Virus record (IMG/VR): IMGVR_UViG_3300025005_000002
Span: 32,001 to 96,000 of that record
Origin: a virus
Direction: 5' to 3' (one strand)
Length of the DNA stretch: 64,000 nucleotides
The notes below the pieces were generated by a model. The model saw only the letters and a program-made list of their open reading frames with translations, searched no databases and was not told where the DNA came from. Position numbers and translations under genes: made by a program. Every line of letters starts with the position of its first letter. Positions within the stretch are counted from its first letter, which is position 1. Positions 2,925 through 34,185 of the stretch are shown one piece after another.

Positions 2925-3250
2925 TGCCATTTCGTAGTAAGGCCCAGCAACGTTTTATGTTCGCGGTCCATTCAGGCATAGCTAAAAGATGGGCAGATGA
3001 GACACCCAATATAAAGAGTTTGCCTAAAAAGGTTAAGAAAAAGAAACTTTCTGAGGGTGTATTTTCTAAATTGGCAGAGAGCATGACTAAGTTTAAGGTA
3101 TTAACAGAGGTATTTCAAGCTAGGGTAAACCCTGCTGTTCAGAGATTACGTAGATTCAGACAAACTAGGCAACATAATTTCGCTAGAAAAGGGCTTAGTG
3201 CACAGGGACGTGATTTAAGAAGCGCATTGAGAAAAAAGATATCAACATAA
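2924..3250 (+). CDS. Basic phage hypothetical protein (MPFRSKAQ..RW motif)
   Basis: N-terminus MPFRSKAQQRFMFA..AKRWADET resembles a recurrent small phage protein motif; RBS GGAGAGGG. Confidence 0.65.
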   Translation: MPFRSKAQQRFMFAVHSGIAKRWADETPNIKSLPKKVKKKKLSEGVFSKLAESMTKFKVLTEVFQARVNPAVQRLRRFRQTRQHNFARKGLSAQGRDLRSALRKKIST

Positions 3251-3299
3251 ACGCGTGGACATTAGGAGTATTAGAAAGGAAATACGGGATAATTAATAA

Positions 3300-15730: not shown

Positions 15731-16568
15731 TTATATATAGAGAGTCTGGTCGTGTACAAGGTCATAATATACTATATATTATAATACGGAGGGGGCCCAA
15801 TTTGGATATACACATATTTTTCACGGAAATAATATAGATTCATGGATAGTGATATAGATTCACGTCTCAGATTATTGTGCGAGGCCATTTTTGCTCTGCC
15901 GTGGTCCTTTGGTGGTAAAAGTAAGATGGACAAAGTTTGGAGTAGATTAGTATATGCTGGATATCTAATTAAGAATTACCAGGAAGTAGTGAAGGTCCAT
16001 ATTTAGTCATGATGTACTTGTGCACGTGTAATAATAATGAAGGTGGAAAGGGTATAAACAAATATATCACCAAATGGGAGGTATGGAGAGCCCTTAGGAA
16101 CGCAGAAATAGCAATGTTAAAATACAAAACAAAAGGAGATAACAAATGATTAAGATCATGATAATCATCTTCGTTTTAATATTTGCCCTATACATTTTAC
16201 GAAAAGTTGCCGAGTACAATTATAAACGGTGGGGTAGATTCGATGAATAAGAAATATCTAAAGTATGATCCGTTACACCAGCAAGGAAAGAGAGGAAGGG
16301 GAAAAAAGGAATGATGACGAAAGAAGCGCCGCCGCGCCAGCGGCGAGGGGAGGGAAGGATGAAGCCGATCAAGGCGTGGGCGATAGGAACATTTTCGGGC
16401 GGTAAACTGTTGGGCATCGTTAGATACCAACTCAAAATGAAGACGAGGGAACCGTGTCTATACCATACCAAGGCTGACGCGCTCCGTGATGTCGAAATTG
16501 CCCTGCCGGAGGATATAACCGCTCGCCCCGTCCGCGTGACGATCACGGTGGAGGAATAGGGGGGAGAG

Positions 16569-17213
16569 ATGATGGAAAGATGCGGCAAATGCGGGATGGT
16601 AGAGGAAAGTTCAATCCACGACATCAACAGTCCAGATACAGAAATACGAAGGGTGGCGCATCACTTCGAGTTGGTAGCCCCATGCCCTCGATGCGCCATA
16701 AAGGACGCCGCCCTCGCCGCCGCCAACGCCGAGAAGGACTTCTGGAAGTCGCACGATAAAGATGCCGACATTGTACGCGATTCCTACAACAAGGCCATTG
16801 AGGAAAGCGATCTTATTCGCGCTGACCTCGCCATCGCCAAGGCCGAGCTGACACGGCTGCGGGAGGCGATTGGGTGGGCAGAGTCTCACGCCCAAATATA
16901 CGCCACTGTCGGCGGATATAGATACGTTGATTTCGCATCCGAACTACGTCGCCGCGCCGGCGGCGAGGGGGAGGGCGGAATGATGTGGTGGTGCTGTTCC
17001 GCAGACTATCCCGATCACGATGAGAATTGCAAAGGAGGTGAGGGAAGGATGACGAGTGATCTTACTTGTGAGGATTGCGGGAGGGAGTTGCAGTTTGGCG
17101 TGGATGGGGTTTGTCGGTGTGGGAAACAACTATGCTTTGACTGTCACGAAAAGAATCACAAACGTTGCTATGAGATACCGGTACCTGGTGTGAAGGTCCC
17201 GGTGGGGGAATAG
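16569..17213 (+). CDS. Cys-rich / coiled-coil phage hypothetical protein
   Basis: RBS GGGGAG; modules AALAAANAEK, AELTRLREAIGWA, SELRRRAGG. Confidence 0.6.
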   Translation: MMERCGKCGMVEESSIHDINSPDTEIRRVAHHFELVAPCPRCAIKDAALAAANAEKDFWKSHDKDADIVRDSYNKAIEESDLIRADLAIAKAELTRLREAIGWAESHAQIYATVGGYRYVDFASELRRRAGGEGEGGMMWWCCSADYPDHDENCKGGEGRMTSDLTCEDCGRELQFGVDGVCRCGKQLCFDCHEKNHKRCYEIPVPGVKVPVGE

Positions 17214-17221
17214 GAGGGGAC

Positions 17222-17458
17222 GTGGACACTATAAGTTGTCAGCATGGCAATCTCGCCCGGTCCTGCGAAATCTGTGCATTGATCGCCGAGCGGGACGCGC
17301 TGAGGGAGGAAAACACCCGGTTCCGAGAGAAGCTGGACCGGGAGAAGATGGCGAAGATATTATGCGGCGGCAGAATGCGATGGAACGGGCTGTTCGAACT
17401 CACCCGCGACGGGTACAGAAGCGATGCCGACGTCCTGATCGCCTATCTTACCGAGTAG
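17222..17458 (+). CDS. Small phage hypothetical protein
   Basis: RBS AGGAGGGG; FREKLDREKM..YLTE module. Confidence 0.6.
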   Translation: MDTISCQHGNLARSCEICALIAERDALREENTRFREKLDREKMAKILCGGRMRWNGLFELTRDGYRSDADVLIAYLTE

Positions 17459-17469
17459 GAGGGGAACAT

Positions 17470-17778
17470 ATGTTACACCCGAACACAGGAATTGATCTCG
17501 GCAGGGAGGCTGACGAGGTTCGCAAGGAGAACGCCTCCTTTCGCGCCGCCCTCGCCGCCGCCGACGCGGAGCTGACGCGGCTGCGGGAGAGTAACGCGAG
17601 TCTGCTTGAAGGACTAAAATGCGTTGCCGACTTCGCATCCATGCCGCCCCGCGTAAGCCATGGCGCAAGTAACGGGAAGGATGAAATAGACAAACTGATC
17701 GCGGACATCGCCCTCGATTTATTGAAGCGGGTTGAATATAGATTGAGCCGCGCCGACGGCGAGGGGAGGGAAGGATGA
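17470..17778 (+). CDS. Coiled-coil phage hypothetical protein
   Basis: Likely start ATG 17470; RAALAAADAELTRLRE module. Confidence 0.55.
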   Translation: MLHPNTGIDLGREADEVRKENASFRAALAAADAELTRLRESNASLLEGLKCVADFASMPPRVSHGASNGKDEIDKLIADIALDLLKRVEYRLSRADGEGREG

Positions 17779-18023
17779 GCATTAATTGTGGATCGTGCGG
17801 AACGCCGTTGTACCACATTGACGAAGCCTGCCCGAATTGTTTGGCCGGGTCTCGGCTTGTCGATAGGCCACCAACACACCATATTCTCCCATGCCCCCAA
17901 TGCGCCCGCTTCCGAGAGAAGTTGGACAGGGAGAAGATGATTGAAACGGTGCTCGCGGGAACGAAAGGGGTATGGACATACGATACCCTTACCGATTTCC
18001 TTATTAAATATCTCACCGAGTAG
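17775..18023 (+). CDS. Zinc-finger phage hypothetical protein
   Basis: CGSC, CPNC, CPQC; FREKLDREKM..YLTE module. Confidence 0.6.
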   Translation: MSINCGSCGTPLYHIDEACPNCLAGSRLVDRPPTHHILPCPQCARFREKLDREKMIETVLAGTKGVWTYDTLTDFLIKYLTE

Positions 18024-18032
18024 GAGGAAACA

Positions 18033-18917
18033 ATGTACCAAGTATGCACGTGCCCGCAGTCGAATCTTACGGACGGGGATCCACATTGTTCCGTTCATGG
18101 GCAACCGTCGGAGTATAAGACTTATTCGTATTGCGAATCCTGTGTCGCCCTCCGCGCCGACCTCGCCGCCGCCAACGCCGCCAAAGAGGAAGAACAGAAG
18201 CGAAAGGAGTATTACCAAAATATCGTCTATGCGGTATGCAACGTACTCGATAAAATAAACGGATCGGCAATATGTTGCGGTACGAAAGACACTCCAACAA
18301 ATGAAGTCCAGGAAGCGATGTGCAGTCTGCAATCGAGATTGGCGGAACACACTCGCTGGGTATTACTAAATGCTGTTGATAAGAACGCATTACAGGAAGC
18401 GGAGGCCCACGCCAAGCGCCTTGAGGAATATATGCTCAAGGGCGTCGCGTTCAGGGATGAACTGCAGGCCCGCGTGAAAGAGTTGGAGTGCCAGAAGAAA
18501 GCACTCCAGCAAGTGAACGGGGAAACGGAATACAGGTTGTGCATGATACGGGAGGCGATAAAACGGAATGTAATAGACGCGCCAGACTTGCAGGCGGGAA
18601 ATATGAACGAAGCATATTTGGCATCTCTTGAATTGCAGCGTAGGAAAGAAGCCCTTACTGAAGCATACACCTCTTCCCCCCCATGCCGACACGAAGAGGA
18701 AGCGAAGCGGCTGAGGGAGGAATCACAAAGTGGGTTGGCGATGACTTCCTGCCCAGTCTGTGAGAGTGATGGCGCAAACACAAATGAATACAGGATCAAC
18801 AAGGAAATACACCGGCTACGGGAGGCGGTGGAATGGGCGCTTGGCATGTTGGATGACAATTGCGATCGGAGGTATATCCAATCCGAACTCCGCCGCCGCG
18901 CAGGGGGTGTCGAATGA
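18033..18917 (+). CDS. Coiled-coil phage hypothetical protein
   Basis: RBS AGGAGG; RADLAAANA, RLREAVEWA and SELRRRAGG modules. Confidence 0.65.
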   Translation: MYQVCTCPQSNLTDGDPHCSVHGQPSEYKTYSYCESCVALRADLAAANAAKEEEQKRKEYYQNIVYAVCNVLDKINGSAICCGTKDTPTNEVQEAMCSLQSRLAEHTRWVLLNAVDKNALQEAEAHAKRLEEYMLKGVAFRDELQARVKELECQKKALQQVNGETEYRLCMIREAIKRNVIDAPDLQAGNMNEAYLASLELQRRKEALTEAYTSSPPCRHEEEAKRLREESQSGLAMTSCPVCESDGANTNEYRINKEIHRLREAVEWALGMLDDNCDRRYIQSELRRRAGGVE

Positions 18918-18942
18918 TCGCCGCCTACCTGAAGGAGGGAAA

Positions 18943-19242
18943 ATGATGACGAAAACCGAGTGGAAGGATTTCGAGCGGGTTGAGCATCTGGCTGATGCCG
19001 TGGATAACCATGGCGTCGGATTCGGGAACCCACCAATGGATGACCAGATGGCTAGAACTATCCTCGCCGCCTATCGGGAACTGAAGGAACGCCGGGAGGA
19101 CGAAGAGTGGCTGAAAAAGCATTACGCTGATCTTATCTATCGTAATGACGGTGCGGTCAGTCTCCATGCGGCAGGAATAATCGGCAGGGCTATAGGACCC
19201 ACCCTCCACGACGCTGTGGACGTCGCCCGGGGAGGAAAATGA
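18943..19242 (+). CDS. Hypothetical protein
   Basis: RBS AGGAGG before ATG 18943. Confidence 0.55.
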   Translation: MMTKTEWKDFERVEHLADAVDNHGVGFGNPPMDDQMARTILAAYRELKERREDEEWLKKHYADLIYRNDGAVSLHAAGIIGRAIGPTLHDAVDVARGGK

Positions 19243-19354
19243 TGACGTTGCAGATGCTGTGGCTAACCGTTGTTGTCATAGTGGGGTTCGCATATGTGAT
19301 TTACTTATTGTGTAGGATATTTGATGCGATCAACGCCGCACGGGGGAAATAAAG

Positions 19355-19639
19355 ATGCTGAAGGAAGAGAGAGTATTCCGCCTGCGACTCAAGAAATTGT
19401 GCGGTATTGCCAACTGCGACCCACGCCCCATTCTTCGAGAACTAACATGGGTCGTGAAAGCCGTCCGGGAGGACGATGCGAAAGTGGTTGAAGGATGCGG
19501 AAACGACGAATTATATGAAGCCATCTCTGATGCTGTCCGGAAGGGGAAGCCGGTGCAACAGTGTACGTATTGCGGCTTAATGAAAGAAAATATTACGTCC
19601 AATGGTGAATGCAGAACGTGCCGCGCTGCGCATATATAA
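19355..19639 (+). CDS. Hypothetical protein with C-terminal CxxC pairs
   Basis: CTYC..CRTC. Confidence 0.5.
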   Translation: MLKEERVFRLRLKKLCGIANCDPRPILRELTWVVKAVREDDAKVVEGCGNDELYEAISDAVRKGKPVQQCTYCGLMKENITSNGECRTCRAAHI

Positions 19640-19848
19640 CCGTCTTCCGCGTTAAAGGAGAATGGGGATGTCTGAAATAAAGATTAGTTGTAATCAACAA
19701 GTTACGGCATTCCTTTACCAAGCCATGATGTATTTGAATCGTCGGCGGCATATGTCCCTTGCTCTGACAACCAATTTTCGCATAAGGGTAAGGCTACACA
19801 ATTTGTGGCAAAGGGTACACGGGTTATCATAACATGAGAGGAGAAAAT

Positions 19849-20103
19849 ATGAAAATAAGAAAGGGTGATATATATGAGGATTGTGCGTTTCACCCGGTGA
19901 GGTGCGAGTATATAAATGGCGATGATATCGAAGGGGTGTCATTACTTGATGGGTCCCGACCGCGCAGATGCAGTATACGGCATTGTGGGGTACGCAAAAT
20001 GACCAAGGATGAAGCGGCAGGTACAATTGCGATTTATGGGCAAGGAGGGGAGCAGGGTTTGTGGGAATATAAAAAACAACAAAGGAGTAACAAAGTAAAA
20101 TGA
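19849..20103 (+). CDS. Hypothetical protein
   Basis: RBS GAGGAG; coupled to next gene. Confidence 0.55.
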   Translation: MKIRKGDIYEDCAFHPVRCEYINGDDIEGVSLLDGSRPRRCSIRHCGVRKMTKDEAAGTIAIYGQGGEQGLWEYKKQQRSNKVK

Positions 20104-22513: not shown

Positions 22514-23440
22514 ATGCAGGAATTACCGGCAGAAAAGATTGCCCAGTTAAGAGAGCATTTTATTAAGATAAGCTGTCAACCAAGGCAAGAAATAATTAAT
22601 AAGATCGCTAGACAAATGTCAAATTTGGATATTGAAATTTTGGAGTGCCAGAAGGCATTAGTAGCCCGAATAAGAGAGCTGGAGGTTAAGAAATTTGAGT
22701 ATGACGCAATGCAGATCAAACCATCGGCAGAACTTAAGGGTGCGGAATTTGACAATTTGCTCCTTCATCCTGATATTGAAAATATTGAATTTGAGGGGTA
22801 TGGGATTATAGTAACCACAAAGCCAATCAAGATTGAGTATGGCGGGGAAATATATTTTATTGGTCGATTTAATATATATCTTGAAACAAATGGTGGTATT
22901 GGGTGGTTGTTAAGGTTTAAGAATTTAGATCAAAATATATTTGGTCATCCCCATCCGCATATGCAAACAAATGGGGTACCATGTCTGGGGAATATTAAGG
23001 AATGTATGCCCCATATGATAGGTGCCAATCAGTTTGCTGCGGCGATTAATGTTGCCATTCAATATTTAAAGTCATATTCAGATTCAGATCAATATGGGAA
23101 ACCTTATGTTATATTGGAAAACTGGCCCAAAATAAAACGAGAAAAGGAGAAAGTCGATGAAGTTAGCCGAGGCGTTGATCGAGCGGAAGGGATTACAGAA
23201 GAAGATCGAGCGATTATCGGAGCGGTTGGTGAACAATGCCAAGACTCAGGAGGGGGAAACGCCCTCCGAGAATCCCCTGGAGTTGATCAAAGAGATCAAC
23301 GGGACGAACGAGGAACTGACGCATCTGATCATAGAGATCAACAAGACGAACGCCCTGGTATACTTGAACCCAGCGCAAATGCCGGTGGTGACGCTGGCCG
23401 ATGCGTTGGCCAAGAGGGATGGGATCGCGAAGAAGCGTAA
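22514..23440 (+). CDS. Coiled-coil plus E2/UBC-like domain protein (paralog of 31042 and 31946)
   Basis: HPHMQTNGVPCLGN..QFAAAINVAIQYLKS..NWP; the last ~95 codons overlap the next gene in another frame. Confidence 0.7.
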   Translation: MQELPAEKIAQLREHFIKISCQPRQEIINKIARQMSNLDIEILECQKALVARIRELEVKKFEYDAMQIKPSAELKGAEFDNLLLHPDIENIEFEGYGIIVTTKPIKIEYGGEIYFIGRFNIYLETNGGIGWLLRFKNLDQNIFGHPHPHMQTNGVPCLGNIKECMPHMIGANQFAAAINVAIQYLKSYSDSDQYGKPYVILENWPKIKREKEKVDEVSRGVDRAEGITEEDRAIIGAVGEQCQDSGGGNALRESPGVDQRDQRDERGTDASDHRDQQDERPGILEPSANAGGDAGRCVGQEGWDREEA

Positions 23441-23630
23441 TATACTGGCGAAGTTCGCGGAAGCAGCGACAGAACCAGTGAGGGCGTATGGACGGTTGGA
23501 AGTGAAATATATCCGTACGATGAATATACCGGCGATTCAGAAAGAGATCGATGCTCTCGCCGCCGAGTATAATGCGTTAGATGCGAAGATCCAGGGAAAG
23601 AATTGGGAGATTGACCTGGTAGTGGACTGA
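23157..23630 (+). CDS. DIP1984-like protein
   Basis: MKLAEALIER..LQKKIERL..NNAKTQEGETPSENP..TLADALAKRD; GC-rich. Confidence 0.75.
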   Translation: MKLAEALIERKGLQKKIERLSERLVNNAKTQEGETPSENPLELIKEINGTNEELTHLIIEINKTNALVYLNPAQMPVVTLADALAKRDGIAKKRNILAKFAEAATEPVRAYGRLEVKYIRTMNIPAIQKEIDALAAEYNALDAKIQGKNWEIDLVVD

Positions 23631-28368: not shown

Positions 28369-28763
28369 TGGGGAAAGAATATAAAGATGAGAAGATGGAT
28401 AAGGGAAAGGGGACAGACCTGGTAATATCTGTTCGCAATAAACTTACCAATGAAACGATTACGATGGACGCCGGAGAAGCTAACGAGCAATTTATTCTTA
28501 CTATGGTAAAAGCAAATGCGGATCGTGTGTTTATGGCAAAATCTTGTAGTTCGAAACTCTTGGTTGATCATCTCTTAAATGTTGTACAGGATAACAAGGA
28601 AGAGTTTATGATAGCCCTTGTTATTGCTACCACAACTGGAATGATTAATTTAAAAGAGATGAGTAAAAATATTAAGGTTCTTTCTATACCAATTGGTGAA
28701 GATGGCACTCCTAATTTCCCGAGCTTTGGCAACGATGACAAAAAGAAACCAACCTTTAACTAG
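28368..28763 (+). CDS. Hypothetical protein
   Basis: RBS AGGAGG; TAATG overlap. Confidence 0.6.
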   Translation: MGKEYKDEKMDKGKGTDLVISVRNKLTNETITMDAGEANEQFILTMVKANADRVFMAKSCSSKLLVDHLLNVVQDNKEEFMIALVIATTTGMINLKEMSKNIKVLSIPIGEDGTPNFPSFGNDDKKKPTFN

Positions 28764-28782: not shown

Positions 28783-30462
28783 ATGGATGATAATGCAAAA
28801 CTGATGGAGGCCTTGGAGGTTATGAAGAAAAACCTCATTGAGGCCAAAAAAGTTATTATGGCACAAGAAGAGGTTTTGGATCAATTTCGTACCCCCCCCT
28901 TTCTTCAAGGTATCGTTATTGGTGGCGTTACTGGGCAGATAGAGTGGTCTAAGTTTGTTAAGGGTTTAAAGGTAAAACTTCGTAGGGATTCCAGTTTTGC
29001 CCATCAGAGTACAGTCCCCGGAGTAATACAAAAGATTGATGAGAGTGGTTGGGCTCAAGTCTTGTGGGATAACGGTAGTTCTAATTCGTATCGTACCGGT
29101 AAACCTGGGACTGACGAAGGTGTATGTGACCTTGAATTTGCTGAAAATTCACTTGGTGAAGAAATTTGTGTGCTTGAGGGTTCGTCGGTGCATTATGCCC
29201 AAAAGCCATATATTAGGGTAGAATTAGGCGATACGGTAACTCTAAATCCGATGACGAAGCAGGTAATTGGTGTCGTGGCTCCGGTGATATCTGGGGAGAT
29301 CCGATATGTTAATAAGGTGATATCAGATGAATTGGTGGAAGTCTCTCACCAGGATGCATCCAAAGTAGTACTCACTGGGAAATTTGCCAAAAAGATGGAA
29401 AAAGGGGACCGTGTTATTGTCGATAATACTGCAACAATTGTCCTGAACAACCTGGGAAAGGACGAGACAAAGTTTGAGGTTAAAACTTCATCAATGTCAA
29501 TCAACTGGGATGATATTGGTGGGTTGGAAGATGCAAAGAGAGAGATGGTCGAAATTGTGGAACTTCCTCATAAGTATAGCAATTTATATAAGTTTTATAA
29601 CAAGAAACCGGCAAAAGGGATCTTGTTGTGGGGCCCTCCTGGTTGTGGTAAGACCATGCTTGGAAAAGCAGCAGCTACTGCAATGGCTGCTATTCATAAG
29701 CAGAATGGCAATGGAAGCGGATTTCACTATATCAAGGGACCCGAGATCCTGGACAAATATGTGGGTGTGGCAGAGGCCACAATTCGCAGGATCTTCGAAA
29801 ATGCCAAAAAACACAAGGCTAAGAACGGGTTCCCTGCTGTAGTATTTATTGACGAAGCCGACGCCATCCTAGCTAGGCGTGGTTCTGGTATCAGTTCGGA
29901 CATAAATAATACCATCGTCCCGATGTTTTTGGCGGAGATGGATGGTATGGAAGAGTCTGGTGCACTGGTATTGCTTGCGACCAATAGGGCCGATGTACTT
30001 GATCCCGCAGTAACACGTGATGGGCGAATTGACAGGAAGATAAAAGTCACAAGGCCTACAGTGAAGTCTGCTGCTGAGATTTTTATGATCGCCTTAAAGG
30101 GCGTTCCCACCAATAAGGATATACCTAAGGTGGTACTCTCACAGAAGGCTTCTGAATCATTGTTTTCCGATACCAGAATATTATATGAGATTCGTACTAA
30201 AAGGGGTGGCATGATTCCGTTCACACTTAAGCAATTGGTGAATGGGGGGATGGTGGTCGGTATTGTGGATCAAGCGATTTCAATCGCTATCCACAAAGAC
30301 ATTAAGAGGTCAGCAAAGACTGGGGTATGTGAAGAGGATATAATGATGGCGATTGACAAGATTGAGGCACAGAACTGTGGGCTCAATCATAACACTGAAT
30401 TGGAAGAAGTTGTTGCTGGTTTTCGTGAAGATGTTACAAATATTATTCCTATAAGGAGGTAA
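28783..30462 (+). CDS. arc: ARC/Mpa-type proteasomal AAA+ ATPase
   Basis: N-terminal coiled coil ending TPP; WDDIGGL; Walker A GPPGCGKT; IKGPEILDKYVG; Walker B FIDE; RGSGISSDINNTIVPMFLAEMDG closely follows the ARC/Mpa consensus; RDGRID. Likely start ATG 28783. Confidence 0.88.
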   Translation: MDDNAKLMEALEVMKKNLIEAKKVIMAQEEVLDQFRTPPFLQGIVIGGVTGQIEWSKFVKGLKVKLRRDSSFAHQSTVPGVIQKIDESGWAQVLWDNGSSNSYRTGKPGTDEGVCDLEFAENSLGEEICVLEGSSVHYAQKPYIRVELGDTVTLNPMTKQVIGVVAPVISGEIRYVNKVISDELVEVSHQDASKVVLTGKFAKKMEKGDRVIVDNTATIVLNNLGKDETKFEVKTSSMSINWDDIGGLEDAKREMVEIVELPHKYSNLYKFYNKKPAKGILLWGPPGCGKTMLGKAAATAMAAIHKQNGNGSGFHYIKGPEILDKYVGVAEATIRRIFENAKKHKAKNGFPAVVFIDEADAILARRGSGISSDINNTIVPMFLAEMDGMEESGALVLLATNRADVLDPAVTRDGRIDRKIKVTRPTVKSAAEIFMIALKGVPTNKDIPKVVLSQKASESLFSDTRILYEIRTKRGGMIPFTLKQLVNGGMVVGIVDQAISIAIHKDIKRSAKTGVCEEDIMMAIDKIEAQNCGLNHNTELEEVVAGFREDVTNIIPIRR

Positions 30463-30465
30463 GTT

Positions 30466-30693
30466 GTGAGTGCACAGGAGCAGATTAAGAAGAGGTCGCA
30501 TAAAGGCGGTGGGGGGGGCGGTTCTAATGATTTTGACGGTCTTGGGCTTGAAATGGCCGTTATCCCCGGCGTTGATGAAGTGTTACGCAATTTAGATAGT
30601 GATATTAAGAATGTTGGTGGGTTGATTAATAGGACACAGGAAAGGATTAATCAGAGACAGGACCGGCGTCCTTCGCATAATTGTGAATGTTAA
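30466..30693 (+). CDS. Pup-like small protein (no C-terminal GGE/Q; ends CEC)
   Basis: MSAQEQIKKRSHKGGGGGGSNDFD versus Pup MAQEQTKRGGGGGDDDD; VDEVLRNLDSDI versus TDDLLDEIDDVL; RBS AGGAGGT directly after arc. Confidence 0.6.
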   Translation: MSAQEQIKKRSHKGGGGGGSNDFDGLGLEMAVIPGVDEVLRNLDSDIKNVGGLINRTQERINQRQDRRPSHNCEC

Positions 30694-30709: not shown

Positions 30710-31045
30710 ATGTTTAATGGGCTGCTTGTTTGTTTAATACTGGCTGGTGCGGTGGCATCAATTTCTTGCTCCATTAGTAAGGCTGGGGTTATGAGACCCA
30801 TCAGGCAATGGGTCCGTAAAAAGAATGCATGGCTTGGTAAACTTGTGTCCTGTGTATATTGTACTAGCCACTGGATATCAGCGATATTAGTTATAATTTA
30901 TAGGCCAATCCCGTTGCGTTTAGTACAACCAATTGATTCAATAGTTGCCATATTTTTGATAGTGACTATGGCAGCTGGGATGATTTATTGGATTGATTGG
31001 TCTATTGGTTTTCAACCAGATCCACCACAAGAGGGTAATCAATGA
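30710..31045 (+). CDS. DUF1360-like membrane protein
   Basis: Hydrophobic helices with LVSCVYCTSHW (CxxC-x-x-x-W); RBS GGAGG before ATG 30710. Confidence 0.6.
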   Translation: MFNGLLVCLILAGAVASISCSISKAGVMRPIRQWVRKKNAWLGKLVSCVYCTSHWISAILVIIYRPIPLRLVQPIDSIVAIFLIVTMAAGMIYWIDWSIGFQPDPPQEGNQ

Positions 31046-31911
31046 GGGTACATCCAGATTCGGTGGTTGCTTTAAAAGAGGCCTATTTCAAGAATAAACC
31101 CGAATTATCTAGGTTTGTGGCTGGTCGTTTAAAGGTCAACAAACAAACCGTTGTTGGTGTACATGCCAAGCATTTTAAGGAGGTATGTAAGGTACTAAAA
31201 TTACCAATAAGTAAGTTAAAAAGTAGTCGTACTGTATATCGTGGAGTGTATATGGCTACAGTAGACGAATCATTTAAGTCAAAACTGAAAGATAAAAGAC
31301 AAGAAATGCGGCAAAAATATATTGAAATAGCTAGTGGTTTAAGGTCAAAAAAAGCAGTGGAACACCTAAAACATGCGATACATGATCAAGAAGCACGCAT
31401 CCACGCGATTCAAATAGATTTGGTAAATAACCTAAAAAATCTTGAGGGGAAAAATAGAGAATATAAAGTAATTTGTGAAGGTGATCAGGGTACCACAGAA
31501 AACAAAGGTGTTGAATTTGATAAGTTAATGGCTAATCCTGATATAGTAAGGATATTTATAGATGATAATTATTTTACTGTATGGACTAGACCTATTTATA
31601 TTAAGTATAATAATAAGATATATGATGTTGGTGAATTTAAAATAGTATTAGCAATTAACCCTACGGAATTTATAGTAAAAATGCGTAATTTGACCAGAAA
31701 GATTAAAGGTTATGCTCATCCACACATACGTAATAATGGGCGGCCATGTCTTGGTAATATCCAAGAATGTTTACCTCAAATGATTGCAGCACGGCAATTT
31801 GCAGCCGCTATTTTTGTATGTATTCAATATTTAAAATCAGTTAATGATAGTGGATATTATGTAAATATTCACAATTGGCCTTTAAAAATGGCAAAGAGAA
31901 GAGGGAAATAG
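31042..31911 (+). CDS. Coiled-coil plus prokaryotic E2/UBC-like conjugating domain
   Basis: HPHIRNNGRPCLG has the UBC spacing HP(N/H)I-x3-G-x2-CL including the catalytic Cys; upstream GEFKIVL strand. Confidence 0.75.
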   Translation: MRVHPDSVVALKEAYFKNKPELSRFVAGRLKVNKQTVVGVHAKHFKEVCKVLKLPISKLKSSRTVYRGVYMATVDESFKSKLKDKRQEMRQKYIEIASGLRSKKAVEHLKHAIHDQEARIHAIQIDLVNNLKNLEGKNREYKVICEGDQGTTENKGVEFDKLMANPDIVRIFIDDNYFTVWTRPIYIKYNNKIYDVGEFKIVLAINPTEFIVKMRNLTRKIKGYAHPHIRNNGRPCLGNIQECLPQMIAARQFAAAIFVCIQYLKSVNDSGYYVNIHNWPLKMAKRRGK

Positions 31912-31945: not shown

Positions 31946-32578
31946 ATGGATACAATTCTAATGCGTCGAAAATATATAGATCTAGTTAGTGGTAATAGAT
32001 TAAATAAGATAAAGAAGCTGGAACGGTTAATGCGTGATAAAGAAGAGCACGTTGTTGCGGCCCAAATTGATTTGGTAAATTATATTAGAGATCTTGAGGA
32101 AACAAGGACTGAATACCAGGTAGCCCGTATTGATACACCAGAGTTTGCGGAAATTAAAGGTATAGAATTTGATAGATTAATGACCCATCCAGACATAGAA
32201 GGTTTATTAATAGATGAAAATTATATTACTATATTTACTGGGCCAATTTATATTGAATATCACAATAAAGTGTATGATATTGGTAAATTTAAAATTGTTT
32301 TATCAATTAATCCGAGGAATTTTATTGTAAAAATGCAAAATTTGACCAGGTCATTAAATGGTACAGCTCATCCACATGTGTATGAAAATGGAGATCCATG
32401 TCTTGGTAATATCCAAGAATGTTTACCTCAAATGATTGCAGGGTATCAATATGCAGCAGCGATTTCAGTGTGTATCCAATATTTGAAATCAGTTAATGAG
32501 GATGGTGGACATCGTTCAAAGATCACAAATTGGCCTTTAAAAAAGGCTAAGAAAGAAGAGGAAAATGACAAAAAGTAG
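31946..32578 (+). CDS. Coiled-coil plus prokaryotic E2/UBC-like conjugating domain (tandem paralog)
   Basis: HPHVYENGDPCLGNIQECLPQMIA; near-identical blocks to 31042..31911. Confidence 0.75.
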   Translation: MDTILMRRKYIDLVSGNRLNKIKKLERLMRDKEEHVVAAQIDLVNYIRDLEETRTEYQVARIDTPEFAEIKGIEFDRLMTHPDIEGLLIDENYITIFTGPIYIEYHNKVYDIGKFKIVLSINPRNFIVKMQNLTRSLNGTAHPHVYENGDPCLGNIQECLPQMIAGYQYAAAISVCIQYLKSVNEDGGHRSKITNWPLKKAKKEEENDKK

Positions 32579-33308
32579 ATATTATGATGGGTATTTAAAT
32601 GGAGATTATGGGGGTGGTTGGGATGGTATGTATGTACACACACCTGCTCCGGCCAGGCCCTTGGTACCACACGTAGCAGAAACAAAAGTGGAACGTCTGG
32701 GTGCAAATGAAATCCCAAATATCCTTATTTCTATAGAGGCCCTTCGTGATATGAATTATATCATGCAGGAGAGTGGTACTGAAGAAATATCATGGCTTGG
32801 GTCTGTGAAAGAGACTGAGAATGGTGGGTATTTAATCGAGAAAGTATTTTTATTTAAGCAATCAGTAAGTTATGAACATACCGAAATTGATCAGAACAGT
32901 GTCAGCCAATTTTATATTGACATGCTCAAGGCCAACCCAAACAACAAGGCTATGTTGAATCGTATTCTCTTCTGGGGACATGTTCATCCTGGTAGTTGGG
33001 TTGGACCATCTGCACAGGATGAGAATCAGATGGATCTGTTTGCGCACAATAAATATTTTATCCGTGGGATATTTTCCAGAGAAGGGCACTGTTCTTTCAC
33101 GTTCTTCGATTACGAACGTAAGTTGAAGATTGTTGATTGCCCATGGCAAATCGATGTTAAGGTTGGCCATGATGAAAACCGCAGGAAAGAAATCGCCAAA
33201 GAGATTAAAAAGAAGGTAACTCATGGAGGAGGGTATATATGGCAAGGGACAAAGGGGGAAGGCTGGTGGAAGGAAAAGGACAAGAGCCTGATTTCTGGCG
33301 ACAGTTAG
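32565..33308 (+). CDS. JAB/MPN+ (JAMM) metalloisopeptidase
   Basis: EEISWLG..HVHPGSWVGPSAQD fits E-x(n)-HxH-x7-S-x2-D. Confidence 0.88.
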   Translation: MTKSRYYDGYLNGDYGGGWDGMYVHTPAPARPLVPHVAETKVERLGANEIPNILISIEALRDMNYIMQESGTEEISWLGSVKETENGGYLIEKVFLFKQSVSYEHTEIDQNSVSQFYIDMLKANPNNKAMLNRILFWGHVHPGSWVGPSAQDENQMDLFAHNKYFIRGIFSREGHCSFTFFDYERKLKIVDCPWQIDVKVGHDENRRKEIAKEIKKKVTHGGGYIWQGTKGEGWWKEKDKSLISGDS

Positions 33309-33940
33309 ATATCTTTTCGCCAACGAAGTTTAAGACGCCAGTTACTGTAATTGGCGCGGGTGCTACGGGCTCATACATCACTATGCTCCTTGCCAAAATG
33401 GGATGTAAGGATATTACAGTGTATGATGATGATGGAGTAGAGAATTACAATCTACCGAATCAAATATTTAGGATTAAGGATATTGGGGCCAAAAAAGTCC
33501 ATGCTATAGCTGAAATGGTGTTGGATGCAACCGGTGTTAAGATCAAAGCAATCCCCAAAAAATTCACTGGAGGACCGTTAAAGGGAATCGTTTTTGTTCT
33601 TACTGATACTATGAAAAGTCGGAAACAGATATGGGATAAGTCAGTGAAATATCAACTAGCCGTTGATCTATTAATTGAAACCAGGATGGAGGCTGAGGGA
33701 GGGAGGATATACGTAGTTAAGCCAACAATTCCTGCGCAAGTGGAGGCGTATGAAAAAACACTCTATTCAGACGAGGAGGCTGAAGAATCTGTGTGTACAC
33801 GTCGCGCTATTGCTCCTACAGTAGACACAATCGCTGGGATGGCAGTATTCTCTATGCTCAATTTCGTTAACAACAAACCATTTCCAAATGAAATAATTTT
33901 GTCGTTGTCTCCGATGTTAATCATCAATAAAAAATTCTAA
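33239..33940 (+). CDS. E1-like ThiF/MoeB-family activating enzyme
   Basis: WRQ, VIGAGATG, VYDDD, NLPNQ, TDTMKSR and the Cys in ESVCT; no Zn-binding CxxC pairs. The true start may be slightly downstream. Confidence 0.9.
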   Translation: MARDKGGRLVEGKGQEPDFWRQLDIFSPTKFKTPVTVIGAGATGSYITMLLAKMGCKDITVYDDDGVENYNLPNQIFRIKDIGAKKVHAIAEMVLDATGVKIKAIPKKFTGGPLKGIVFVLTDTMKSRKQIWDKSVKYQLAVDLLIETRMEAEGGRIYVVKPTIPAQVEAYEKTLYSDEEAEESVCTRRAIAPTVDTIAGMAVFSMLNFVNNKPFPNEIILSLSPMLIINKKF

Positions 33941-33954
33941 GGAGGATTAGAACA

Positions 33955-34185
33955 ATGACTGAGTCTAACAAGGGTGAGAATATTATTACCATCGGCAAGA
34001 TCCCAGGTCAGCTGCATGAACTGGCAATTGATGGGAAGAAGAAGATCTGCGAGTTATTTGGTCTGATTGGGATTAAGGATTTGGGTAGCTGCGAGATCCA
34101 GAAGAACGGGAACAGCGCCGAAGTTAACGAATACGTCGAGGCCGGGGATACGGTTTTGGCGGTGGCCAAGATTCGTGGAAACTAA
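33955..34185 (+). CDS. Ubiquitin-like (beta-grasp) protein
   Basis: 76 aa; pattern IITIGKIPG..EIQKNG..VEAGDTVLAVAKIRGN; RBS AGGAGG; directly after E1. Confidence 0.8.
   Translation: MTESNKGENIITIGKIPGQLHELAIDGKKKICELFGLIGIKDLGSCEIQKNGNSAEVNEYVEAGDTVLAVAKIRGN

Follow-up and report, generated by a model that had tools for sequence, protein, structure and literature searches.

What might a Pup-like protein do if it ends in two cysteines, and not in the residues through which Pup is joined to its targets? This question is raised by a small phage gene in a stretch of 64,000 nucleotides (the window), which stems from a virus record of 178 kb that is 92% complete. The gene is part of a three-gene cassette, which by sequence and context encodes an ATPase sister to ARC/Mpa, the Cys-tailed protein itself and a DUF1360 membrane protein.

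The gene (30466..30693, + strand) begins 3 nt past the stop of the ARC-like ATPase gene (28783-30462), directly after arc as the sequence-only reading had it, and has a GTG start and an AGGAGG ribosome site. Based on its sequence, the family alignment and the alignment to Pup, the 75-aa product comprises a basic, Gly-rich N-terminus (residues 1-20), an acidic linker, a Pup-like amphipathic helix (36-47), a basic spacer and C73-E-C75, within the C-terminal HNCEC. Protein searches yielded nine homologs with 39-79% identity, and comparison of the ORF with two close homologs showed most differences at third codon positions (16/8/32 and 13/5/34 by position). The ORF is a genuine conserved gene. When we looked up the nine homologs, each one checked had an ATPase gene before it and, where the contig was long enough, a DUF1360 gene after it. 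These homologs were found by sequence alone, and in their ten-row alignment with the 75-aa protein C73 and C75 never vary; of 8866 background ORFs with 45-100 aa, only 49 end in C-x-C. The earlier statement that a C-x-C end replaces Gly-Glu/Gln is thus borne out. The ORF had no match in Pfam, NCBIfam, PHROGs or PADLOC, including the Pup models (PF05639/TIGR03687), an ESM Atlas search with the protein returned only leads below 0.9, and scans of viral contigs with a close alignment or a single ATPase gave no match. Promoter and terminator counts were no better than chance.

We gathered the family of this protein by reading the gene after the ATPase in loci of ATPase relatives. It consists of about 90 distinct small proteins that start basic and Gly-rich, contain an acidic amphipathic helix and have a Cys-rich end, which takes the forms CxC, CxCW, CC..CC or finger-like; none of 92 members ends in G-E/Q. 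The seed was picked partly on the terminal Cys, which inflates the Cys frequency in the family, and a clean test comes from the nine homologs, which are free of this bias. With the phage's own clade left out, a family profile had the window ORF as its sole match among 2059 genome segments (E 1.3e-8), and the same was true after cutting the Cys tail from the model (E 1.9e-8). Carriers of the family are large phages and, patchily, Patescibacteria, and every member with upstream context accompanies its own ARC-like ATPase. In 401 Patescibacteria genomes the cassette had only 2 clear matches, both previously in hand and one of them the search center, for which reason we rejected the notion of a core Patescibacteria system. 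The cassette behaves as mobile DNA.

How close is this family to Pup? The sequence-only reading had likened both the N-terminus and the central helix to mycobacterial Pup. For the helix the comparison stands: V36-I47 aligns in register with Pup T36-L47, with D37, L40 and D44 identical and V39, L43 and I47 conservative, even though it is less acidic, R41, N42 and S45 standing where Pup has acidic residues. In contrast, the QEQ/poly-Gly start is partly lineage-specific, the N-terminal consensus of the family being a basic stretch, Pro and Gly-Gly. Also, the ORF alone matched no Pup model, whereas the family profile, compared to 177,635 PDB sequences, ranked Mtb Pup first with a borderline E-value of 0.012, aligning the N-terminus and helix T36-L47. 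Pup was the most frequent match of family members in Pfam (8 of 79) and NCBIfam (7 of 79), with none of these matches being strong; the best member reached E 0.0029 against the Pup model, and two members scored singly obtained 17.4 and 14.8 bits (cut-off 27). Since a reversed Nonomuraea Pup scores nearly as well with the Cys-free family profile as the native sequence (6.3 vs 7.6 bits), helix composition accounts for part of the Pup signal, and for UBact there was no clear gain over the reversed sequence (11.7 vs 10.8 bits). Judged by these comparisons, kinship of the Cys-tailed family with Pup is likely but borderline; the ATPase, through its family, clade and coiled coil, lends it separate support.

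Pup is defined by a C-terminal G-[EQ] for isopeptide ligation and by a gene adjoining PafA/Dop (PMC2588565). As both this end and the PafA neighbor are absent, the Cys-tailed protein is not a Pup. It does not have the terminal carboxylate side chain required for attachment to target lysines and, going by its sequence, could presumably not be pupylated, because it is without terminal Glu/Gln and no PafA was found: neither PafA/Dop (PF03136) nor 20S had a match in the 92%-complete phage genome, and no gene for either was found in the tag-carrying genomes tested, which are incomplete. Within a set of 20 genomes, mostly of Patescibacteria and likewise incomplete, and 5 virus records, all holding the ATPase, PafA was present in one, whose ATPase has no tag, and one other had a short, weak match to PF00227.

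The first gene of the cassette (28783..30462, + strand) encodes a 559-aa AAA+ ATPase, whose best family is TIGR03689 (E 2.5e-89); at 300 bits, obtained with a longer start, it lies below the equivalog cut-off of 504.75. An alternative start at 28693 was rejected, having no ribosome site and lying upstream of the homologs' starts. In a FastTree tree, its clade is sister to the Pup/UBact-associated ARC/Mpa proteins (support 97), and among named sequences those closest to the ATPase come from Patescibacteria and uncultured phages; no full-length relative was found in a cultured phage. The coiled coil of Mpa binds Pup, and Mpa has a GQYL proteasome tail (PMC8223512). The first 45 residues of the phage ATPase are in register with the Mpa coiled coil of Tsukamurella and Nonomuraea, with modest scores. 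Its C-terminus reads IPIRR, without GQYL/HbYX, and an HbYX ending was found in none of 104 ATPase loci, whereas actinobacterial controls end in GQYL. Since Walker A/B, the pore loop (KYVG) and the arginine finger are intact, while no 20S and no HbYX end were found, the ATPase is probably a stand-alone unfoldase. Residues ∼57-120, between the coiled coil and OB domains, form an SH3-like insert (weak MIB_HERC2/DUF4314 matches), which occurs in part of the clade.

An adaptor for the phage ATPase had been among the roles first suggested for the small protein, and the presence of an ATPase with a Pup-binding type of coiled coil beside each member that has upstream context agrees with it. Prediction of a complex of two coiled-coil chains and the peptide scored 0.45 against 0.01 for the best control, with runs sharing at least 75% of contacts and a partner pLDDT of at least 54. 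Of 80 solved pairs, 58 attained the pass mark, as did 2 of 110 mismatched ones; passes scoring 0.60 or under comprised 7 of the 80 solved pairs and 2 of the 110 mismatched ones, that is, both mismatches. The model lends weak support to binding of the peptide to the ATPase coiled coil, and its pass may reflect memory of Pup-Mpa. Given the profile match, the sister clade of the ATPase, its coiled coil and the complex model, we think that the Cys-tailed protein probably works like the docking half of Pup.

The other half of the protein is an exchangeable module, since three loci join the docking half to another C-terminal domain, an unclassified alpha/beta domain that ends in Gly-Gly or has it close to the end (L112:3653-4024, L108:9802-10182, L118:9823-10206). 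In L112/L113 such a fusion directly follows the ATPase, replacing the Cys tag and DUF1360. A single-sequence fold of the L112 domain (pLDDT 63) had no clear match in a fold search, and we therefore withhold the name Ubl for it. The architecture is one of a constant ATPase-docking half and an exchangeable hook. We also observed that the fusion genes precede a conserved gene of ∼180 aa with an N-terminal C-D-C-x-x-C motif, that the Cys-tailed peptide occurs in a second copy or in tandem at some loci (L033:3313-3558, L035:3298-3540, L121:9469-9711 and L133), the L033 copy having the most Pup-like helix of all (Pfam Pup, E 0.0084), and that in one phage clade (L158-L162, L167) the tag ends in a conserved cluster of the type C-C-C-x4-C-x-I-G-P and DUF1360 is absent.

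What might the cysteines hook onto? The third gene of the cassette (30710..31045, + strand) encodes a DUF1360 protein of 111 aa with three hydrophobic helices (PF07098, 31.8 bits, cut-off 21); we found PF07098 in all 57 DUF1360 members. An upstream start at 30683 was rejected on the same grounds as for the ATPase, having no ribosome site and homologs that start later. In this family, C48-x-x-C51 and W55 are invariant and S53-H54 near-invariant. An AF2 model (pLDDT 93) has the CxxC motif at the start of helix 2, just past a Lys/Arg-rich loop, which by the positive-inside rule probably places it on the cytoplasmic face. A fold search gave no clear match (best Z-score 7.2, to unrelated transporters); VKOR/DsbB were absent among the matches listed, which is no evidence of differing folds, and the ESM Atlas yielded nothing of use.

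The gene is coupled to the tag strictly and in one direction. In 90 non-redundant ARC-clade loci with enough flank, we found both tag and DUF1360 in 58, the tag only in 13, neither in 19 and DUF1360 only in none; in viral loci anchored on DUF1360, those with the ATPase also have the tag. The residues that are (near-)invariant on either side are C48/C51 in the DUF1360 family and C73/C75 in the tag family. Of 62 tails that have DUF1360 nearby, 52 contain at most two Cys, nearly all in a CxC/CC pair, whereas without it 7 of 15 tails have three or four, finger-like, a comparison between related sequences that is suggestive only. There are exceptions in plain-CxC tags without DUF1360 nearby (L106, L109, L111), a tag without Cys (L127) and eight DUF1360-linked tails with four Cys. 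DUF1360, which the sequence-only reading overlooked, is the likely partner of the Cys pair of the tag. It also has other roles, since 37 of 54 viral loci have this type of DUF1360 but no ATPase, and almost all of the 37 are tagless. In 17 ATPase-free loci, mostly from one phage family, a thioredoxin-like gene precedes DUF1360 (Pfam Thioredoxin, E 2.5e-6 to 3.7e-14 in the five tested), which favors thiol chemistry and keeps alive a role of the peptide as a disulfide-linked tag.

Several other DUF1360 contexts were observed. In ATPase-free phages (L275, L282, L306, L280 and L298, in each upstream of position ∼3000), a run of genes encodes a ∼340-aa protein, a thioredoxin, DUF1360 and small helical proteins, which suggests a redox role for DUF1360; the ∼340-aa protein has a TAT-like start and a weak peptidase C39-like match, and some of these loci have a probable terminase. 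Genes ending in G-C-x-C lie directly upstream of DUF1360 in L263 (3-758) and L267 (2339-2986), and the flank retrieved gave no ATPase match. Distant DUF1360-like genes in Gordonia phage Phendrix and Actinomycetia phage DSL-LC01 (L310, L311, ∼3000-3290) are located just before the portal gene and downstream of terminase.

The reading that we tentatively prefer, short of calling it probable, is that the Cys-tailed protein acts as a non-ligated adaptor, whose helix docks onto the phage's own ATPase and whose CxC clasps the CxxC of DUF1360 through a shared Zn or a mixed disulfide. The acidic amphipathic helix would bind the N-terminal coiled coil of the ATPase in the way that Pup 21-51 binds Mpa, and the terminal CxC would pair with the CxxC(xxH) that DUF1360 has on its probable cytoplasmic side, the simplest form being an intermolecular Zn(Cys)4 clasp and the other a mixed disulfide. 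The ATPase, thereby tethered at the membrane, would thread the disordered N-terminus of the adaptor, and this threading would pull on or remodel DUF1360 or its attached cargo, with no need of a proteasome. We regard the adaptor role as moderately supported and infer the clasp between its tail and DUF1360. In the zinc clasp of CD4/CD8alpha with Lck, a CxC and a cysteine pair on the other chain share one Zn2+ at the membrane (PMC12198760). The analogy is mechanistic only, with no homology, and here the CxC is on the soluble partner.

The cysteines can also be read in other ways. The peptide could be a covalent thiol tag, in line with the Cys-based attachment suggested at first, DUF1360 being a small membrane thiol-disulfide oxidoreductase that oxidizes the CxC and moves the peptide onto client cysteines for unfolding by the ATPase, in effect a pupylation by way of disulfides. 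The retained disordered N-terminus, of the threading type, and the thioredoxin-like genes before the same type of DUF1360 in the 17 loci of ATPase-free phages speak for this, as does the CPYC-type motif at the start of a helix, which recalls VKOR/DsbB. Yet the thioredoxin link comes mostly from a single phage family, and the thioredoxins in it have N-terminal hydrophobic segments, whereas the CxxC of DUF1360 is at the probable cytoplasmic face and disulfides are unstable in the reducing cytoplasm; we consider such a tag unlikely. Somewhat less likely still is that the protein regulates or inhibits its own ATPase, sensing metal or redox state through the tail; the likeness to Pup would then be convergent and DUF1360 co-inherited without contact. 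This reading presupposes that acidic helices of any kind can bind coiled coils of this sort, and the near-equal score of reversed Pup, the limited spread of the QEQ/poly-Gly start and the several tails that are self-contained Cys clusters all fit, but it has to contend with the absence of DUF1360 without tag from ARC-clade loci and with an ATPase clade that is sister to the Pup receptors and retains their coiled coil. S-acylation of the Cys pair, with DUF1360 as a Cys/His transferase that would anchor peptide and ATPase to the membrane, seems improbable to us: the endings vary (CxC, CC, CxC+1-5) after a basic stretch with a mean net charge of +1.6, as in eukaryotic membrane-targeting tails, and DUF1360 has conserved Cys and His, but it is very small for an acyltransferase, and long tail extensions and finger-like clusters do not fit.

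Least credible is the decoy proposed in the sequence-only reading, which would jam host Mpa/ARC and so block the breakdown of pupylated proteins. A Pup-like helix could indeed cross-bind Mpa, but the probable stand-alone motor removes most of the ground for this role: an own ATPase is co-encoded wherever context is available, and the cassette also lies in Patescibacteria genomes that gave no match to PafA/Dop or 20S. A decoy, moreover, needs neither an invariant Cys pair nor a co-inherited membrane partner, and leaves both unexplained. A part in ubiquitin-like conjugation, which we rate as hardly more credible than the decoy, would have the Cys take a Ubl as thioester, or the peptide pass Ubl-tagged proteins to the ATPase, within an E2-JAB-E1-Ubl cascade. 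The cassette does run straight into such genes, tightly packed in the phage and its relatives, including a 118-kb contig that belongs to the same phage or a near-identical one; the ATPase has E1/JAB genes nearby on several separate branches, and fusions of the docking half to a GG-bearing domain occur. However, Ubl-type genes are within 9 kb of the ATPase in only 8-11 of 104 loci, the tag is absent from several loci with ATPase and Ubl genes (L030, L038, L143), and most tag loci have no Ubl genes.

In the window, these genes, all on the + strand, begin with a coiled-coil and putative E2-like protein (31042..31911), whose start overlaps the DUF1360 stop and which has an HPH-x4-G-x-PCLG motif; profiles did not confirm its E2 identity, with no Pfam E2 match and only a weak one to UBE2W (E 1.4). 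It is followed by a second putative E2-like paralog (31946..32578), 57% identical to the first, a JAB/JAMM-like peptidase with the motif HxH...S..D (32565..33308; PADLOC JAB, E 0.016), a ThiF/E1-like adenylating enzyme (33239..33940; PF00899, E 1.6e-23) and a putative small Ubl ending in R-G-N (33955..34185). The last had no family match of its own and is named for its position after E1 and its by-eye likeness to a gene of L091 that lies beside E1/JAB/E2 and has a weak ThiS match (E 0.02). A third E2-like paralog (22514-23440) is located 5 kb upstream of the ATPase, its frame overlapping a 157-aa ORF (23157-23630). Ubl-type genes are a recurring but optional neighbor, on several separate branches and sometimes without the tag; perhaps they supply this motor by another route, and they are unlikely to be the tag's own chemistry. 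Like the Bil/Bub operons for bacterial ubiquitination-like pathways (PMC11601596), the downstream phage genes encode E1, JAB, E2-like and Ubl-like proteins, but the Cys-tailed peptide is not a β-grasp protein and has no terminal Gly, and Bil/Bub as described include neither ARC nor DUF1360.

To our knowledge, Pup occurs only as a covalently ligated tag accompanied by PafA. We regard the Cys-tailed protein as a probable variant of Pup-ARC recognition that does without ligase and proteasome; neither of it nor of the cassette of tag, ATPase and DUF1360 did we find a description in the literature searched. With Pup/Mpa-ARC (PF05639, TIGR03687; TIGR03689; PDB 3m9d, 3m91, 7px9) it has in common a Gly-rich start, small size, a D-x-x-L-x-x-[IL]-D-x-x-L helix and the link to an ARC-type ATPase with a homologous coiled coil. 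In contrast to that system, the Cys-tailed family is without terminal G-[EQ], PafA/Dop and 20S, and its ATPase without GQYL, whereas the conserved Cys pair, the DUF1360 partner and the place of the gene directly after arc are its own features. UBact of Nitrospirae/Nitrospinae likewise resembles a small tag and is encoded outside Actinobacteria, at an ARC locus, but it ends in RTG[EQ] and accompanies Dop/PafA/20S, neither of which applies here. In Corynebacterium, too, an ARC unfoldase is found without 20S core, reportedly acting on pupylated ferritin without proteasome (Kuberl 2016), but there PafA ligation of a true Pup is retained.

It is possible, though doubtful, that the Pup-ARC recognition pair gave rise to this system, a mobile one, and that reversible cysteine chemistry (a Zn clasp or disulfide transfer by DUF1360) has replaced isopeptide ligation in it. 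If so, phages and ultra-small bacteria would gain ligase-free and proteasome-free targeting of an unfoldase to clients that lie in the membrane or bear Cys, and DUF1360, mentioned in the literature searched only as a domain of unknown function, would have its first function. In this family, recognition of an ATPase in the manner of Pup is set apart from ligation and proteasome and combined with a cysteine hook and a membrane family yet to be characterized, which makes the family a testable case for the evolution of tag/receptor pairs and their reuse by phages; three small genes are enough for reconstitution. Elsewhere in the window, positions 16001-20000 form a GC-rich stretch (50-53%, against about 37% GC in the window).
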